Positions 1 through 6,095 of a DNA stretch of 41,777 nucleotides are shown here, piece by piece. Made by a program: the position numbers and the translations under genes. Each line of letters opens with the position of its first letter. The first letter of the stretch is position 1. The stretch is from a virus. The notes beneath the pieces were generated by a model. That model made no database searches. It was not told the origin of the DNA and saw only the letters and a list, made by a program, of their open reading frames with translations. The stretch lies in UHGV virus genome UHGV-0060642; one strand, 5' to 3'.

Positions 1-49
1 TTATCAATTTGTTGCAACGAACAGGTCACTATCAGTCAAAATAAAATCA
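1..49. promoter_or_regulatory. attL: attL P' arm (partial) with Int arm-type binding sites
   Basis: Sequence ...caggtcactatcagtcaaaataaaatcattatttgatttc... matches recalled lambda P' arm with arm-type repeats (aggtcactat, cagtcaaaat); lies immediately 3' of int. Confidence 0.85.
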
Positions 50-1120
50 TTATTTGATTTCAATTTTGTCCCACTCCCTGCCTCTGTCATCACGATACTG
101 TGATGCCATGGTGTCCGACTTATGCCCGAGAAGATGTTGAGCAAACTTATCGCTTATCTGCTTCTCATAGAGTCTTGCAGACAAACTGCGCAACTCGTGA
201 AAGGTAGGCGGATCCCCTTCGAAGGAAAGACCTGATGCTTTTCGTGCGCGCATAAAATACCTTGATACTGTGCCGGATGAAAGCGGTTCACGACGAGTAG
301 ATGCAATTATGGTTTCTCCGCCAAGAATCTCTTTGCATTTATCAAGTGATTCCTTCATTGATATCCCAAGAGCATCAACATGCAATGTTGTTGGGATGGC
401 AATTTTTACGCCGGTTTTGCTTTGCTCGACATAAAGATAGCCATCTACGATATCAGACCACTTCATTTCGCATAAATCCCCAACACGCTGCCCGGTAACA
501 ACAGCCAGTTCCATTGCAAGTCTAAGCCAACATGGTGATGATTCTGCTGCTTGATAAATTTTCAGGTATTCGTCAGCCGTAAGTCTTGATCTCCTTACCT
601 CTGATTTTGCTGCGCGAGTGGCAGTGACCGGGTTTGTTGTTATATGGCCTTCAGCTATTGCCTCTCGGAATGCATCGCTCAGTGTTGATCTGATTAACTT
701 GGCTGACGCCGCCTTGCCCTCGTCTATGTATCCATTGAGCATTGCTGCAATTTCTTTTGTGGTGATGTCTTCAAGTGGAGCATCAGGCAGCCCCCTCCTT
801 ATTGCTTTAATTTTGCTCATGTAATTTATGAGTGTCTTCTGCTTGATTCCTCTGTTGGCGAGGATTTTTTCGTAGCGATCAAGCCATGAATGTAACGTAA
901 CAGAATTATCACTGTTGATTCTCGCTGTCAGAGGCTTGTGTTTGTGTCCTGAAAATAACTCAATGTTGGCCTGTATAGCTTCAGTGATTGCTATCCTCCT
1001 GTCTCGGCCTAATCCAAACTCTTTACCCGTCCTTGGGTCCCTGTAGCAGTAATATCCATTGTTTCTTATATAAAGATTAGGGGGTAAATCCCGGCGCTCA
1101 TGACTTCGCCTTCTTCCCAT
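50..1120 (-). CDS. int: Tyrosine integrase, lambda Int type
   Basis: 356 aa; N-terminus MGRRRSHERRDLPPNLYIRNNGYYCYRDPRTGKEFGLG and C-terminal catalytic region (HELRSLSARLY...HLLGH...Y) match recalled lambda Int almost residue for residue; ATG verified. Confidence 0.97.
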   Translation of the reverse strand: MGRRRSHERRDLPPNLYIRNNGYYCYRDPRTGKEFGLGRDRRIAITEAIQANIELFSGHKHKPLTARINSDNSVTLHSWLDRYEKILANRGIKQKTLINYMSKIKAIRRGLPDAPLEDITTKEIAAMLNGYIDEGKAASAKLIRSTLSDAFREAIAEGHITTNPVTATRAAKSEVRRSRLTADEYLKIYQAAESSPCWLRLAMELAVVTGQRVGDLCEMKWSDIVDGYLYVEQSKTGVKIAIPTTLHVDALGISMKESLDKCKEILGGETIIASTRREPLSSGTVSRYFMRARKASGLSFEGDPPTFHELRSLSARLYEKQISDKFAQHLLGHKSDTMASQYRDDRGREWDKIEIK

Positions 1121-1316
1121 TTTTGATCCTCTTCAAAAGGCTACCTGTTACTGGTCGATTTAAGTCAACCTTTACCGCTGATTCGTGGAACAGATACTCT
1201 CTTCCATCCTTAACCGGAGGAGGGAATATCCTGCACTCGCGTACCCATCGACGAACTGTTTCAAGGCTTCTTGGGCGTCGCTGGCGTGCGTTCCACTCCT
1301 GAAGTGTCAAGTACAT
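1098..1316 (-). CDS. xis: Excisionase Xis
   Basis: 72 aa MYLTLQEWNARQRRPRSLETVRRWVRECRIFPPPVKDGREYLFHESAVKVDLNRP matches recalled lambda Xis; overlaps int start as in lambda. Confidence 0.95.
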   Translation of the reverse strand: MYLTLQEWNARQRRPRSLETVRRWVRECRIFPPPVKDGREYLFHESAVKVDLNRPVTGSLLKRIKNGKKAKS

Positions 1317-1340
1317 CGCAAAGTCTCCGCAATTACACGC

Positions 1341-1364
1341 AAGAAAAAACCGCCATCAGGCGGC
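1341..1364 (-). terminator. Putative rho-independent terminator on the leftward transcript upstream of xis
   Basis: Minus-strand hairpin ccgcc-tgat-ggcgg followed by a run of T (approximate coordinates). Confidence 0.5.
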
Positions 1365-1406
1365 TTGGTGTTCTTTCAGTTCTTCAATTCGAATATTGGT
1401 TACGTC

Positions 1407-1718
1407 TTATTCGATGCGCACTCCTGGTATTTCGCCTTTTGATATTGCGAAGTCATAAATTTGCGCAGCACTATACCCATCTCGCATCCATGAATCTAAT
1501 GCGCGAATAGCCTCGCTACGCTTTTTATCTTCTCTCTCATTTTTGATATCAACGAGGACATCAACGCAATTAAGGCAAATGTGGATTTTGTCCTTACATT
1601 CGATCATGGCGGCTTTACCATGATTTCCGCCACACAGTGAGCATAAATCTTCAGGGTCTGGCTGGTATTTCTGTAACGTTAGATGGTTGAATGTTGAACA
1701 GGCCATAATCATCTCCAT
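1407..1718 (-). CDS. Hypothetical Cys-rich small protein
   Basis: 103-aa ORF with several Met near the N-terminus (likely start at Met5, GGAG upstream); CSLCGG...C...CLNC cysteine pattern suggests a zinc-binding fold; no family recognised. Confidence 0.6.
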   Translation of the reverse strand: MEMIMACSTFNHLTLQKYQPDPEDLCSLCGGNHGKAAMIECKDKIHICLNCVDVLVDIKNEREDKKRSEAIRALDSWMRDGYSAAQIYDFAISKGEIPGVRIE

Positions 1719-1777
1719 AAAACAAAACTCGCCGTAGCGAGTTCAGATAAAAGAAATCCCCGCGAGTTCGAGGATTG

Positions 1778-2062
1778 TTATTCATTGCCGATATTCACCT
1801 TTATCGCGAACACCTTTACCGGTTTATCGCCGAAGTGCGGATGTGTGATTGTCTTGATTTCATATCCGTCATACGGAACATCAATTCTACGGCTGGAATC
1901 GTCGCGCTTCGGATATCCCTTTGTGATAATCAGGCGATCATACTCCCGGAACATAATTCGCTTATTCCAGTAGTCATTACACAGGCGATACTCTTCCGTT
2001 TTCTCTCTGCGAATCATGGCATCGAAGTATTCACCTTTAACGGCAAGTTGTAGGTTAGCCAA
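1778..2062 (-). CDS. DUF3850/ASCH-like domain protein, probable TTG start
   Basis: N-terminal segment LQLAVKGEYFDAMIRREKTEEYR resembles the DUF3850/ASCH N-terminal motif (EYFDA...G.KT.E.R); the track ORF begins with TTG at 2101, but an in-frame TTG at 2062 is preceded by AGGAGG with a 6-nt spacer; first ATG (Met29) would remove the motif. Confidence 0.6.
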   Translation of the reverse strand: MANLQLAVKGEYFDAMIRREKTEEYRLCNDYWNKRIMFREYDRLIITKGYPKRDDSSRRIDVPYDGYEIKTITHPHFGDKPVKVFAIKVNIGNE

Positions 2063-2639
2063 GGTTAACCTCCTGCGGCGGTTCTGCTGCAAAATACGCA
2101 ATACCTTTATCCCAGATGGATTTTATGGTCGTCCATGTGACTGGTACTTTAATTTCAATCCGCCCGCTACCGTCACAGGTATCGCAATCATCATCGCCAA
2201 AGCATTCCGGGCAGCTGATAAACGTAGTTTCTGAAAATTCACCGGATAGCGCACCCTTAGCGCCGTTCTCGGCTGTTAGTCTCTTCGGCACCATGACCCA
2301 ACCATCCGGAGTTACCGGAGAGTTGCCATTTACATCGAAGTTTGGCTCTGCGTCCTGAACCAGGAGGATGTAACCATTCTTGGCTGTATCAAGTTCTAAC
2401 GCCTCGGTGACGGTGCCGAAATAGCGATTACCTAAATCAGCATCACAAGTGCTTACATCAATGGAAACTTCCATGCCCTCGATTAATTCTGGCAAGTTGT
2501 AAGTTTGGCTTACAGGTTCGGCTTCCAGCGATGCCAGTGCGATTTCATAAGCCAGGCGCTCAATATTGTCTCGCACGTCCAGGCTGCCGATTCGCTCTCT
2601 GATTTCTTTAATCAGTTCTTTGTCGGTAAAAGTAGTCAT
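2055..2639 (-). CDS. Hypothetical protein with C-terminal CxxC...CxxCxGxG zinc-ribbon motif
   Basis: 194-aa ORF, ATG verified; motif SCPECFGDDDCDTCDGSGR near the C-terminus; acidic. Confidence 0.7.
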   Translation of the reverse strand: MTTFTDKELIKEIRERIGSLDVRDNIERLAYEIALASLEAEPVSQTYNLPELIEGMEVSIDVSTCDADLGNRYFGTVTEALELDTAKNGYILLVQDAEPNFDVNGNSPVTPDGWVMVPKRLTAENGAKGALSGEFSETTFISCPECFGDDDCDTCDGSGRIEIKVPVTWTTIKSIWDKGIAYFAAEPPQEVNLG

Positions 2640-2642
2640 GTG

Positions 2643-2930
2643 TTAGTCCTCATCCACTTCAACGCCATCTTTCAGCGTGATGCCGTGCCAATCATCAGCC
2701 CAACTGGTTAGCCCTGGCGCATCAATGCTAGGCATATAGACGCTTGCAGTGTGGTAGCCCTTATCGTTATCAATGCTGGCAACGTGCTCGCCGTTGTATG
2801 CGCTCAGCGTGTCCAGGACGCTATAAAACTTTCCTCCGGCTGCCCTGAAATCCTTTACAGCCTTCACAAGGCGATTCCACGCTTTTTCCTGTTCTGGCGT
2901 CAGGTCGATTAATTCCTGCAAAGTTGCCAT
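2643..2930 (-). CDS. Hypothetical protein
   Basis: 95-aa ORF with ATG start, tightly packed in the leftward early operon. Confidence 0.65.
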   Translation of the reverse strand: MATLQELIDLTPEQEKAWNRLVKAVKDFRAAGGKFYSVLDTLSAYNGEHVASIDNDKGYHTASVYMPSIDAPGLTSWADDWHGITLKDGVEVDED

Positions 2931-2931
2931 A

Positions 2932-3375
2932 TCACTCTCCTTTGATGCGAATGCCAGCGGCGCGGATTGCAGCGATGATCTCAGAAACTTTGTATGCCAT
3001 TACCGTTTGGTAATCATCGTGAAAATCTGTTCGATGAAGCATGCTGCTACGTTCCGGGAGCAGTATTTCCCGCGCTTCCAGTTCTGCAATGCGCTTTTTT
3101 GCTGCTTCCAGTTCATCCAGTAATTCCAGCACGGTAGCTGGATTGGCTGCGGTGATGAATTCAGCATTGGCCTGCTGTTCCATTTGGAAATCTTCATCGA
3201 AACCGCTTTCAGGATGCGCTCCTTCAATTCTGCAAATGGGAAGATATCCAACAACGTCACGATGAATTAGCGCATCATCACAATCAAATCGACTCTCTCC
3301 ATATTCGAGCGACCACACCCCACACGTTGCTTTCTCTGCCTTTTCACGCAGTGCCTGATAGTCAATTTCGCTCAC
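2932..3375 (-). CDS. Ead/Ea22-like protein (GTG start)
   Basis: 147 aa; segment ANPATVLELLDELEAAKKRIAELEA is typical of the Ead/Ea22-like family of lambdoid early-left regions; start codon GTG preceded by AAGGAGG. Confidence 0.7.
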   Translation of the reverse strand: MSEIDYQALREKAEKATCGVWSLEYGESRFDCDDALIHRDVVGYLPICRIEGAHPESGFDEDFQMEQQANAEFITAANPATVLELLDELEAAKKRIAELEAREILLPERSSMLHRTDFHDDYQTVMAYKVSEIIAAIRAAGIRIKGE

Positions 3376-3899
3376 TGGTTGCCTCCTTTGCGAAGCTGGG
3401 CGGCGAACTCGTTAAGTGATATGTAGCAATCTCCAAATGTTAACGAACCGCTCGACTGCATATGCTCCATAGCCATCTCTACCCCCTGCGCCCGTACTTC
3501 AGCCAGGAAAGCATCGGTGGCTGGGGTTTCTTCAAGCGCTCGCTTAACCTTTTCCTCAGCTTCGCAAATTGACTGAACCCAGAAGTCAGCGTGAGGTGGC
3601 CTGCCTGCCTTTTTTATCTCCGCACGAAGCTCAATTTGCTGAGTTACCGCAGATTTCAGTCTCACATTCTCCGCAGCCATCGCTGAAAACTTCTCGTGTG
3701 CCAACTTAACAGCTGCATCAGCCTGCTTAATTGACTCAATCGCTTTCTGGTGGTCTTCGGACAGAGCCGAAATCTTGGCCTCCGCTTCAGCAAATTTACG
3801 CACCAGATATTCAGCGTTTGTTTCGTTAACCATTAAATCTCGTGGGATGCATTTACCTTTCAGAAATCCATCCATCTCAATTAGTGACATTTGTTTCAT
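3372..3899 (-). CDS. Hypothetical coiled-coil protein, possibly Ea22 N-terminal-like
   Basis: Track ORF 3372-3917 begins with GTG; the first ATG (Met7, [12 protein letters not shown]) is preceded by a GGAG-like site; stop overlaps the downstream GTG start. Confidence 0.6.
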
Positions 3900-4093
3900 T
3901 TCTTCCCACTCCGCCACATCGCATTCAGATATTTGTTTTGATTTACTGATGGAAAAGAATTTCTCTTAAGTAATTCCTCTCTCGATGGCATTGGCTTTAC
4001 GCGTTGGCGAATAATCATTTCTGCCGGAAGAATGCTAGGATTGTATGCAAGTCCTCTCATGGTAAATTCCTCAGTCATTACTGATAGCGCCAT
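3896..4093 (-). CDS. Possible small ORF (65 aa)
   Basis: ATG ORF overlapping both neighbours by about 22 nt; no clear RBS seen; may be spurious. Confidence 0.3.
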
Positions 4094-4367
4094 AGCGTGA
4101 GCGGTAATTACGCAGGCGCGGGTCGATATATTCAGGGAATTTGTCTATTGTCGCTTTTCGCAACGGTCTCATTGCTGTTTCGTTTGTTCGGTCCTTCTCC
4201 TGTTTTAGCGCGAGTTGTATATCGCGTCGGTACATCCGTTCTGCTTTTGTTTCTGGTGTCATAGCAAGAAACGCGTCGAAATTGTTTTTGATATTTTCCA
4301 GCACCTCCGCCTTGGAGCTACCGGAGCAGTTGCGCGCGTCGTCCGCACCATACAGAGGCGCTGGCAT
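4071..4367 (-). CDS. Hypothetical protein
   Basis: 98-aa ORF with ATG and an AAGG upstream. Confidence 0.6.
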
Positions 4368-4390
4368 AATGGGAGCCTTATTTTCAGTAA

Positions 4391-4978
4391 TCAGAAATGA
4401 GGGTAATCGTTCTGGCTGTAACCATAATCATCTGCATGATTCTGGCTTACGTTTTTAGAGCGATTGTCTTTATCTTTGAGGCTGGCAACCATGTTGGCGA
4501 TAGTTTCTGGTTGCTTGCCTTCCGCCTTTTCTTTAAGGGTTTGACCTGTTTGTGCAATAAACGGGATGCGTATTTCCATCTGGTAACTATCTGCGCCAGT
4601 CTTTTTGTTTGTGGTTAATACTTTCTGGAGCACTAACCCGATTTTCTTTCCATGAAACTCAGGAGCAACAAATTTACTGGCGGAAACCATATGTTGCGTT
4701 AACTGTCCAATCCCGGCACACCCCATCATGGCGTGAACGACATTTGCGCCAAATTTGTTTTCCGTTCCGTCATTTTTCTGAACACAGACGCTAAGATATT
4801 GGATTTTACGTCCGTCGTCGGATTCGCCAGAAAACTCAATAAATTTTGCACCTTTTTCTGATTGCTTGAGTTCTGCTTCAGTAATGGTAATGATATGAGC
4901 GCCAGTTTCATTAATAAAACCACCTTGTCCTGCGGTCAGTGCTGCTTCTTCGTTATAAGTAAAAATTACGTTGCTCAT
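4391..4978 (-). CDS. Putative ssDNA-binding protein, partner of the Sak4-like ATPase
   Basis: 195 aa; translationally coupled downstream of the Sak4-like gene; acidic/aromatic C-terminal tail ...DDYGYSQNDYPHF resembles SSB C-terminal tails; assignment by context. Confidence 0.55.
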   Translation of the reverse strand: MSNVIFTYNEEAALTAGQGGFINETGAHIITITEAELKQSEKGAKFIEFSGESDDGRKIQYLSVCVQKNDGTENKFGANVVHAMMGCAGIGQLTQHMVSASKFVAPEFHGKKIGLVLQKVLTTNKKTGADSYQMEIRIPFIAQTGQTLKEKAEGKQPETIANMVASLKDKDNRSKNVSQNHADDYGYSQNDYPHF

Positions 4979-5655
4979 GCGGCGTTTTCCTTAATTTGAT
5001 GAACATTATTGATGCCGTAGTAATCACAAACAGTGGCATCGACGAAAGAGAGATCGTTATCAATCTCATTGGAATCAAACATTCCCATTGGGGATTTAAC
5101 AGTGTCTGCACCGTTGTTTTTCGTGGTGAAAAAGAACTGGTCATCGCGGGTAAGAGTGCGAAGAACTATAGTAAACATGCCTTCGACAGTGATTTTTTCG
5201 TCCAGCATTTTGCCGATAGTCTTCATTTTCACACGCCCAACAGGGGTTTCTTCGGTATGGGCAAGAAAATAGACTCTCAGGTCATCAGGCGCATCCTGTG
5301 CAGCCTTAATGACCTCCCATGCGTGACGGCCTATCTCAGTGAATTTATCAAACGATTTTTCTTCTGAGCGGCGCATAAACTCATTACTCATCACATACTG
5401 GAAGTCATCAACAATAACGATTCTTTTCCCGTATTCGTGAGCACGCTTAATTACGGCAACTATTACGTCCCATTTGTCAGTGGTAACTACGGTTCCTTTT
5501 TTTGCTCTAGCATCCCATGCAAGCCAGTCTTTTGATTTAAATGGTAGCGGCTTGCCTATTGGTTTTATAAGTATTGCTTCCTCTGGATTGATATTTCTCA
5601 TGCTGGTTGATTTTCCGGTGCCAGACTCACCGAGTATTAATGTCGCAGTTCCCAT
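4975..5655 (-). CDS. Sak4-like RecA-fold ATPase (phage recombination protein)
   Basis: 226 aa; Walker A GESGTGKST at the N-terminus, Walker B RIVIVDDF; size and motifs typical of Sak4-family annealing ATPases that replace Red or Erf. Confidence 0.7.
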   Translation of the reverse strand: MGTATLILGESGTGKSTSMRNINPEEAILIKPIGKPLPFKSKDWLAWDARAKKGTVVTTDKWDVIVAVIKRAHEYGKRIVIVDDFQYVMSNEFMRRSEEKSFDKFTEIGRHAWEVIKAAQDAPDDLRVYFLAHTEETPVGRVKMKTIGKMLDEKITVEGMFTIVLRTLTRDDQFFFTTKNNGADTVKSPMGMFDSNEIDNDLSFVDATVCDYYGINNVHQIKENAA

Positions 5656-5663
5656 AATTTGCC

Positions 5664-5864
5664 TCAGAATGGTAATTCGGATGGGGAGGAAAGAAACTCG
5701 CGCTCATTCATGCGCTCTCTTTGCGCCTGCCATAAACAAAGTTGTTTCTTTGATTTATCTCCCGCTTTACGCCAGTAACGAGCCTCAGCAATGTGATATT
5801 CTCTTTTTAATCGACTTAACTCTGGAGTTTTCGCCAGTTCTACCGGAATCATTTTGACCTCCAT
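5664..5864 (-). CDS. Hypothetical protein
   Basis: 66-aa ORF, ATG start, overlaps the kil end by 16 nt. Confidence 0.5.
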   Translation of the reverse strand: MEVKMIPVELAKTPELSRLKREYHIAEARYWRKAGDKSKKQLCLWQAQRERMNEREFLSSPSELPF

Positions 5865-5962
5865 TTCCTGTAGGCTTCTACGGCCTCACGAAACATCTTT
5901 TCATCGCCAATAAAAGTGGCGATAGTGAATTTAGTCTGGATAGCCATAATTGTTTGATCCAT
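5849..5962 (-). CDS. kil: Host cell-division inhibitor Kil-like peptide
   Basis: MDQTIMAIQTKFTIATFIGDEKMFREAVEAYRKW matches the recalled lambda Kil N-terminus; overlaps the cIII 3' end as in lambda; start set at the internal Met of the track ORF. Confidence 0.65.
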   Translation of the reverse strand: MDQTIMAIQTKFTIATFIGDEKMFREAVEAYRKWRSK

Positions 5963-6095
5963 TTTTTGGGACTCCTGGCTGATTAAGTATGTCGATAAGG
6001 CGTTTCCATCCGTCACGTAATTTACGGGTGATTCGTTCAAGTAAAGATTCGGAAGGGCAGCCAGCAACAGGCCACCCTGCAATGGCATATTGCAT
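5931..6095 (-). CDS. cIII: CIII (protects CII from FtsH)
   Basis: MQYAIAGWPVAGCPSESLLERITRKLRDGWKRLIDILNQPGVPKNGSNNYGYPD matches recalled lambda CIII (54 aa); ATG at 6095 preceded by AAGGAG. Confidence 0.9.
   Translation of the reverse strand: MQYAIAGWPVAGCPSESLLERITRKLRDGWKRLIDILNQPGVPKNGSNNYGYPD

Follow-up and report, generated by a model that had tools for sequence, protein, structure and literature searches.

The N-terminal zinc-binding domain (ZBD) of ClpX dimerizes, and adaptors and substrates dock to it (the SspB tail, lambda O, and MuA). Among phage proteins, lambda CIII acts on FtsH and T4 PinA acts on Lon. Proteins of the ASCH superfamily carry an octapeptide, GxKxxExR or GxKxxTxR, at the junction of helix α1 and strand β2 (bioRxiv 10.64898/2026.02.27.708502). 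In the GKER type, activity on N4-acetylcytidine (ac4C) of tRNA has been reported for some proteins, and the Lys and the Glu were reported to be essential for removing it; the YqfB-type N4-acetylcytidine amidohydrolase is characterized by K21, T24, R26, and E74 and by activity on ac4C (bioRxiv 10.64898/2026.02.27.708502). Here we describe three conserved genes, A, B, and C, on the minus strand of the 41,777-nucleotide (nt) virus genome UHGV-0060642 (the window, i.e., the whole stretch of DNA analyzed), where they lie between xis and the Ead/Ea22-like genes.

A, B, and C are genuine accessory genes that encode proteins. They occupy the distal part of the leftward early operon of a lambda/P22-like Escherichia coli prophage, at the end nearest the integrase gene. 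They are not chance open reading frames (ORFs), as judged from the homologues and substitution pattern of B, the polymorphism of A, and a publicly deposited protein identical to C, and they are non-essential to the phage. We consider it likely that the following explanation holds as a whole: beside this gene structure, B would be an ASCH/PUA-like protein, A an exchangeable cassette for a ClpX-type zinc finger, and C a mosaic protein of the EaA/Ea22 group, with roles read from these relationships. The coordinates of all features are given in Table 1.

Start codon of gene B

The longest ORF of B (1778-2101) encodes 107 amino acids (aa), starts with TTG, and overlaps the 194-aa ORF of C (2055-2639) by 47 nt. 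Upstream of a second in-frame TTG, at 2062-2060, lie AGGAGG (2074-2069) and a 6-nt spacer, TTAACC (2068-2063); from this TTG, the product has 94 aa. No ATG occurs in frame before codon 16 of this 94-aa form (2017-2015), and a start there would drop strand β1 and the invariant residues L4, Q5, A7, V8, E11, Y12, F13, and D14. An earlier note on this DNA, made from the sequence alone, had pointed out the overlap, the Shine-Dalgarno sequence with its spacer, and the loss of a conserved N-terminal motif from the first ATG, all of which we confirmed, and it had preferred TTG 2062 over TTG 2101. Comparison with related loci bore out this preference. We gathered 96 gene-B loci; the start codon could be read in the 89 in which the N-terminal motif could be located. 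The scan of the genome collection gave only 13 loci, and most of the comparative data come from the viral scan. The codon homologous to 2062 was GTG in 67 of the 89 loci, ATG in 18, and TTG in 4, the last comprising the window plus three IMG/VR contigs nearly identical to it. In 74 of the 89 related loci, a 6-nt spacer separates an AGGAGG from this codon. The earlier note had regarded ATG-initiated homologues lacking the N-terminal motif as the argument against this start; the 18 loci with ATG have it at this same position and keep the motif.

The family of B comprises 671 detectable homologues across Enterobacterales. Their N-termini read MANLQLAV, with a few substitutions at positions 2 and 3, from Escherichia to Brenneria and Pectobacterium, and RefSeq annotates the relatives of B as 285-nt genes for a 94-aa "ASCH domain-containing protein." The ratio of nonsynonymous to synonymous substitution rates (dN/dS) of B against other genera was 0.08 to 0.19, and B is under purifying selection. 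Taken together, the codon survey, the AGGAGG, the N-termini, and the RefSeq form strongly support TTG 2062 as the start of B and show the extension to 2101 to be an artifact of the overlapping frame. The TTG is a rare allele of a start codon that is normally GTG in this family.

The 107-aa form from TTG 2101, with its 47-nt overlap with C, has in its favor that it is the longest ORF and that some database versions of B are N-terminally extended, to 108 to 138 aa. However, these extensions are unrelated and vary in sequence and length; no in-frame extension exists in 37 of the 89 loci, and elsewhere the extensions are not conserved. No Shine-Dalgarno sequence precedes 2101, the 89 loci diverge into unrelated upstream genes about 25 nt before the start of B, so that homology begins only there, and RefSeq uses the 94-aa form. 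The 107-aa form is effectively refuted, and we used the 94-aa form below.

The start at 2062 overlaps the end of C by 8 nt (TTGGCTAA), the stop codon of C being the TAA at 2057-2055. We also observed a common ending, PEPPQEVN-(R/H/L)-G followed by the stop codon, in all of the mutually unrelated genes upstream of B (for DUF551 proteins, the C core, and others; loci L001-L096), and the codons of this tail carry the AGGAGG and the start codon of B (2055-2085 in the window). In the upstream gene, the second base of the penultimate codon doubles as the first base of the B start codon, and the A/G/T polymorphism of the start codon therefore changes the penultimate residue of the upstream protein between H, R, and L. 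The last 10 or so codons of C belong functionally to the ribosome-binding cassette of B. The 8-nt overlap and the Shine-Dalgarno sequence inside C suggest translational coupling, and translation of B is probably coupled to that of C. B illustrates cleanly how a ribosome-binding cassette can stay fixed while its start codon varies among ATG, GTG, and TTG and the genes upstream are swapped.

Fold and family of the gene B product

The B protein of the window had no match in Pfam (E ≤ 0.1) or NCBIfam. Among 32 members of the family, 16 gave weak matches to Pfam ASCH, all below the threshold (best E, 0.029), and none matched Pfam DUF3850 (PF12961) at E ≤ 10. PDB sequence searches with B gave chance matches only (beta-xylosidase, E 0.043; BirA, E 1.2). 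An AlphaFold model built from 52 homologues had a predicted local distance difference test score (pLDDT) of 82.4 and showed a β1-α1-β2 start (strand 2-8, helix 10-17, strand 23-27) followed by a barrel. The top PDB structural neighbors found with Foldseek were 3iuw (E 0.018, probability 0.99), 2z0t, 1xne, 1s04, ZmASCH 5gus, and YqfB 9kyh; after these ASCH proteins came YTH and SRA domains, which belong to the same PUA-like superfamily. The 3iuw entry may be a structure of the DUF3850 family. Among the viral models of BFVD, the close homologues of B were followed by named neighbors including phage "ASCH" and "DUF3850" proteins, the matches to the latter being weak (E 0.05 to 0.9).

The octapeptide that characterizes ASCH proteins occupies residues 19-26 of B, and K21, E24, and R26 are invariant in the family. 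Since no family could be assigned by sequence methods, the ASCH call for B rests on fold and motif: by its predicted fold and its octapeptide, B is a member of the ASCH superfamily (Pfam PF04266 clan), and by score it is a member of neither Pfam ASCH nor DUF3850. The earlier note had called this gene DUF3850/ASCH-like. The ASCH half of that description stands; DUF3850 membership was dropped, as it had no sequence support and only structural neighbors bear the label. By analogy, the most likely ligand of B, which keeps K21, E24, and R26 of the GKER type, is a cytosine nucleotide of RNA in modified or acylated form, and B possibly hydrolyzes the bound nucleotide as GKER-type ASCH proteins do with ac4C. 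If B proved to be an eraser of ac4C in RNA, it would be a phage-encoded editor of host tRNA.

In the window, the near-invariant Gly of the motif is replaced by Arg (G19R, codon 2006-2008). Arg19 is shared by the same few contigs that have the TTG start and is also found in a Citrobacter homologue (P0078). The combination of G19R with the TTG start means that the window B may be a weaker allele. A stronger form of this idea is that the copy is weakened or decaying through a GTG-to-TTG (G-to-T) change and G19R, perhaps drifting in a resident prophage. The confinement of TTG to four of the 89 loci and the conservation of G19 in at least 90% of family members fit such decay. On the other side, the ORF is intact and otherwise 96 to 98% identical to its closest homologues, the Citrobacter homologue also has R at position 19, and the three residues shown to matter in other ASCH proteins (K21, E24, and R26) are unchanged. 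TTG is a functional start codon in E. coli. We regard a decaying allele as unlikely.

Gene A encodes a putative ClpX-type zinc finger

The longest ORF of A reaches ATG 1718. ATG 1706, which gives a 99-aa product, is the supported start because GGAG lies 6 nt upstream of it, the N-termini of homologues align there, and RefSeq relatives have 99 aa. The earlier note had listed A as a Cys-rich ORF; it is a real gene, with its start better placed at 1706 than at 1718. The nonsynonymous polymorphism of A (pN) was 0.29 versus a saturated synonymous value (pS) of 0.85. A word-indexed search of 5.8 billion proteins found 36 relatives, and an exhaustive profile search of 1.84 billion found 36 representatives at E ≤ 0.001. 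In 24 to 26 aligned relatives, the only residues invariant across the whole family were C22, C25, C44, and C47, and an alignment of A to residues 13-49 of ClpX showed the same Cys spacing.

Weak matches to zf-C4_ClpX were found in 20 of the 22 close members of the A family. A PDB sequence search with the window A alone found ClpX (2ds7) at a subthreshold E of 0.049. The profile search from A gave a graded series, from 100-aa A-like proteins to canonical and sometimes repeated ClpX-type fingers, and 20 of its 26 relatives matched zf-C4_ClpX (best E, 2.7e-39). Relatives with the same architecture as A exceeded the Pfam cutoff (P0287, 43.3 bits; P0288, 31.7; P0292, 29.5; P0283, 28.4), and P0288 has the C-terminal GKIPGVRVE in common with A. 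When the profile of the 100-aa A family was extended, it matched the ZBD of E. coli ClpX (1ovx) at E 4.4e-7, and the top seven PDB matches were all ClpX. The AlphaFold model of A was confident only for a long helix after the second CxxC, starting at residue 45, and a Foldseek search with it gave no meaningful structural match. Because the model was poor, the fold of A was inferred from sequence only, and we relied on the profile searches. They point to A as a divergent, stand-alone ClpX-type C4 zinc-finger protein, with the finger in the N-terminal half, then the long helix and a short conserved tail. A is not a member of the ClpX unfoldases (99 aa, with no AAA+ region). Since A sits in the same slot beside xis, we also considered identity with lambda Ea8.5; the PDB search gave only ClpX-type matches, and this candidate was rejected.

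The ClpX-like zinc module of A most likely serves as a surface for protein-protein interaction or dimerization, as this domain does in ClpX. One more specific version is that A is a phage-made mimic of the ClpX N-terminal ZBD that interferes with substrate and adaptor docking to ClpXP. Free A would then pair with the N-domains of ClpX or soak up their ligands, and phage or host proteins would be shielded from ClpXP during the lysis-lysogeny decision. We consider this version improbable, and a search of the literature on ClpX-type fingers in phages and on phage inhibitors of ClpX found no paper on such phage proteins. If true, it would make A the ClpX counterpart of lambda CIII (FtsH) and T4 PinA (Lon), and its position beside int/xis in unrelated prophages would fit the timing of excision or establishment.

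Gene A as an exchangeable cassette

A follows B in 16 of the 96 loci. Two prophages (L020 and L029) have the same B, xis, and int without A. Their identity with the window extends to the GGAG and the start codon and resumes from 1406 downward; in between, the slot is filled by a 55-aa ORF (MHFRVTGEWNGEPF...DVTNIRIEELKEHQAA; L020:3397-3564). The window retains a noncoding remnant of this ORF, its last 16 codons and stop, right after A. The breakpoints of the exchange are exactly the shared GGAG/start codon and the position right after the A stop. The 933W sequence was left out of this comparison. The terminator-like hairpins that flank the slot are kept whichever ORF fills it and belong to the slot and not to A. 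As to the features of a moron, an autonomous prophage cassette whose facultative gene is flanked by a promoter and a terminator of its own, A is facultative and has a terminator-like hairpin on its 3' side. A simple scan of both strands from 1000 to 4500 found no sigma-70-like promoter, so that none could be assigned to A itself; dinucleotide shuffles gave 4.5 ± 1.6. The missing promoter-like sites may reflect a depletion of internal promoters in the early-left operon.

In Enterobacter prophages with different xis/int genes, an A homologue (P0140) lies two genes before xis, and the distant relatives P0287 and P0283 lie about 0.7 to 1.1 kb from the integrase gene in other prophage types. By these comparisons, A is a swappable cassette that lies near the integrase gene in different types of prophages. 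The same proximity could mean that A acts in the control of integration or excision, as a zinc-finger accessory or regulator of xis/int unrelated to ClpX, since A and its distant relatives stay within about 0.1 to 1.3 kb of xis/int in four prophage backgrounds. However, A is next to B in only those 16 loci, and because prophages with the same xis/int do without A, it is not required for recombination. The int-proximal end is moreover a general hot spot for accessory cassettes. Such a regulatory role is unlikely in our view.

Gene C and its mosaic structure

The earlier note had the C protein ending in a CxxC...CxxCxGxG zinc ribbon. The motif is real, C143-P-E-C146...C152-D-T-C155-D-G-S-G159, and its four Cys residues are invariant in homologues; it does not form the end of the protein, since 35 residues follow it. 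We interpret it as a single DnaJ-type CxxCxGxG knuckle with putative zinc binding. Pfam, NCBIfam, and PDB gave no family match for C.

The modules of C were mapped against 120 homologues and phage genomes. The N-terminus (residues 1 to about 40) is helical and variable and is swapped in relatives for other modules, including Ead/Ea22 (PF13935) N-termini. A middle module follows at residues about 41 to 105, and over residues about 41 to 125 the identity to P22-type EaA/Eaa2 and HK620 hkaE is 78 to 93%. The Cys-knuckle module (residues about 105 to 187) recurs in phages of Klebsiella and behind Ead/Ea22 N-termini, and it stands where phage 933W has a DUF551 end. Neither Ead/Ea22-like (PF13935) nor DUF551 (PF04448) was matched by C itself in Pfam; relatives carry these domains instead of, or before, the modules of C. 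By this arrangement, C is a three-module mosaic of the EaA/Ea22 group, and it may be a modular binding protein. As a separate observation, residues about 48 to 101 (2340-2500 in the window) have counterparts in hypothetical proteins encoded by Acidovorax phage ACP17 (56% identity) and by Xanthomonas phage PhiXhv-16, which has a 229-kb genome (50% identity), both far outside the enterobacterial lambdoid phages.

NCBI gives identical and near-identical C proteins the name "molecular chaperone DnaJ," according to which C would be a DnaJ-type co-chaperone; the name goes back to a single CxxCxGxG motif. Like the Cys-rich domain of DnaJ (1exk) and its one-zinc relatives, C has one strict CxxCxGxG and one CxxCxG, which are 5 residues apart. 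However, there are two such motifs in C versus four in DnaJ, the match to 1exk was not significant (E 2.3), and no DnaJ match was found in Pfam or NCBIfam at E ≤ 0.1 or 1. C also has no J domain and no HPD tripeptide, its sequence containing no histidine at all. Membership in the DnaJ family is as good as refuted, and the public name is a misleading over-annotation.

Distribution in public sequences

In DNA searches, parts of the interval were matched by 439 phage records and by 3,919 of 5,426 complete E. coli genomes, and the interval is a mosaic of very common pieces. None of the phage records and complete E. coli genomes searched contained 1300-2950 as one uninterrupted stretch, the difference lying in the 3' half of C. 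The gene order is shared by phage 933W, with xis, L0063 (A), L0064 (B), and L0065 (C-like, with a DUF551 end). At the protein level, IMG/VR contigs L018 and L019 are 100% identical to the window across the C core, B, A, xis, and int; for contig L017, matches to B and the C core were found, and matches to A, xis, and int were not reported. NCBI holds a protein 100% identical to C. The genes and the 94-aa start of B are already public, in RefSeq and in genomes of the 933W type, and two of the three genes bear RefSeq names. Only the domain assignment of A and the correction of the name of C are new here.

No support for an anti-defense role

A, B, and C could be anti-defense or host-takeover factors, for example, anti-restriction proteins or inhibitors of abortive infection. 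The earlier note had said that this region commonly carries genes of this kind, a remark that stays a generality. The three genes lie 2 kb from abc2, an anti-RecBCD gene, in an accessory part of the early-left region, and some prokaryotes have ASCH domains in association with restriction-modification and toxin-antitoxin systems (PMC7641849). A structural neighbor of B in BFVD is also labeled "Restriction alleviation protein." This is A0A8S5UN54, a 168-aa metagenomic myovirus protein of which one domain is structurally close to B (E 2.6e-5; template modeling [TM] score, 0.74; 26% identity) and which may be a fusion. The label, however, was assigned automatically, to a metagenomic protein that has an additional domain, and genomic position alone is weak evidence. 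PADLOC gave no significant match for A, B, or C, its sole match being an insignificant one to C (E 0.023, over the Cys motif), and nothing was found in the literature on the three genes. An anti-defense role of A, B, or C thus has no support, and we hold it to be improbable.

Neighboring genes and features of the locus

The window opens with the left end of the prophage, whose relevant genes are all on the minus strand. A, B, and C lie downstream of kil, the AAA_24 ATPase gene, abc2, and the Ead/Ea22-like genes and upstream of xis-int. This order agrees with the earlier note, which had seen accessory genes of the early-left operon here. The note had also counted three ORFs between xis and the Ead/Ea22-like genes; three real genes are there, and a fourth ORF of 95 aa lies between xis and the Pfam-recognizable Ead/Ea22 gene. 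It is 99 to 100% identical in 933W and E. coli T309.Ta3 and is without a family assignment. The early-left genes at 3896-6088 form a P22-like, not a lambda-like, recombination module. A 44-aa ORF (1651-1785, minus strand), whose ATG overlaps the stop codon of B (ATGAATAA), extends across the two hairpins and reaches into gene A; neither PHROG nor Pfam gave a match for this ORF, which is probably spurious and was treated as such. For structured RNA, Rfam gave no family at gathering score at positions 1-6000 of the window.

Table 1. Positions of genes, motifs, and RNA features at the left end of the window
Feature	Position	Strand	Remarks
int	50-1120	-	ORF; named from its position overlapping xis
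xis	1098-1316	-	Pfam Exc, E 8e-41
Intrinsic-terminator-like hairpin between A and xis	1347-1366	-	Followed by a T-run; fold of 1335-1375, -15.4 kcal/mol, z -2.9
Noncoding remnant of the 55-aa ORF	1356-1406	-	Last 16 codons (DVTNIRIEELKEHQAA) and stop
Gene A	1407-1706	-	99 aa; phrog_3680
Putative zinc-finger core of A	1566-1643	-	C22-x2-C25-x18-C44-x2-C47
Shine-Dalgarno GGAG of A	1714-1717	-	6 nt before ATG 1706; common to loci with a different ORF in the slot
Two tandem terminator-like hairpins between B and A	1725-1776	-	1776-1755 and 1744-1725; RNA fold, -21.6 kcal/mol, z -4.15
Gene B	1778-2062	-	94 aa; phrog_625
ASCH octapeptide of B	1985-2008	-	Residues 19-26; consensus G-E-K-T-E-E-Y-R (GxKxxExR, GKER type); window copy R-E-K-T-E-E-Y-R
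Spurious 13-codon N-terminal extension of B	2063-2101	-	3' end of gene C in another frame
Shine-Dalgarno AGGAGG of B	2069-2074	-	Within the last codons of C, 6 nt before TTG 2062
Gene C	2055-2639	-	194 aa; phrog_60
Cys motif of C	2163-2213	-	C-x2-C-x5-C-x2-C-x-G-x-G
95-aa ORF	2643-2930	-	phrog_2821
Ead/Ea22-type genes	2932-3375 and 3372-3917	-	Pfam PF13935 match for 2932-3375 only
DUF2737	3896-4093	-	
abc2 (anti-RecBCD, P22 type)	4071-4367	-	
195-aa ORF	4391-4978	-	Without Pfam match
AAA_24 ATPase gene	4975-5655	-	
kil	5849-6088	-	

Discussion

Several observations weigh against the explanation that we consider likely. For A, the window protein scored 15.7 bits against Pfam zf-C4_ClpX (PF06689), for which the cutoff is 27, and its AlphaFold model was poor over the zinc finger (residues 13-44, pLDDT 56 to 59, predicted helical). 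For B, even the best of the 16 family matches fell short of the Pfam ASCH threshold, and the structural matches in PDB were modest (Foldseek E-values of 0.018 to 0.4 and TM-scores of 0.5 to 0.6). The Arg in place of a near-invariant Gly, added to a weak start codon, suggests that B of the window may be a hypomorph. It is the geometry of the two genes that points to a coupling of B to C. In addition, the literature on ASCH in lambdoid phages, DUF3850, ClpX-type fingers, and ClpX inhibitors yielded nothing on the function of A, B, or C.

As they stand, the three genes matter little: they are ordinary and mostly annotated already, and no function emerges. The point of interest is A, which is annotated everywhere as "hypothetical" and would fall in a family of temperate phages that is very small and consists of stand-alone ClpX-type zinc-finger proteins. 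From the family assignment comes a hypothesis that is concrete and cheap to test: that A interacts with ClpX or its adaptors.

Compared with the EaA/Eaa2/Ea22 group (P22-type EaA, HK620 hkaE, and 933W L0065), C occupies the same early-left slot, shares the N-terminal module (residues 1-47) and the middle module at 78 to 93% identity, and has the same C-terminal tail carrying the Shine-Dalgarno sequence of the ASCH gene; it differs in that the DUF551 C-terminal module of the group is replaced by the Cys-knuckle module. The candidate finger of A has a C-x2-C-x18-C-x2-C spacing identical to that of the ClpX N-terminal ZBD (zf-C4_ClpX; 1ovx and 2ds5-2ds8), the second CxxC opens a helix in the model of A, as in ClpX, and the two proteins have the ICxxCVDL context in common. 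Unlike ClpX, A stands alone in 99 aa without an AAA+ module and has the extra long helix and a conserved GKIPxIRI(D/E) tail, and its family of 36 representatives among 1.84 billion proteins is tiny. B resembles members of the ASCH superfamily (E. coli YqfB, Thermus TthASCH, Zymomonas ZmASCH, and E. faecalis 3iuw) in its small size, 94 aa versus 79 to 143 aa, and in the modeled β1-α1-β2 start and barrel, and these members were its top structural neighbors; it departs from them in its subthreshold Pfam score, its modest TM-scores, and the Arg at the motif Gly. YqfB is a housekeeping protein, whereas B is encoded in a phage early operon. With respect to K21, T24, and R26 of YqfB, the octapeptide of B lies in the same register, with K21 and R26 present and, as in the GKER type, Glu at position 24.

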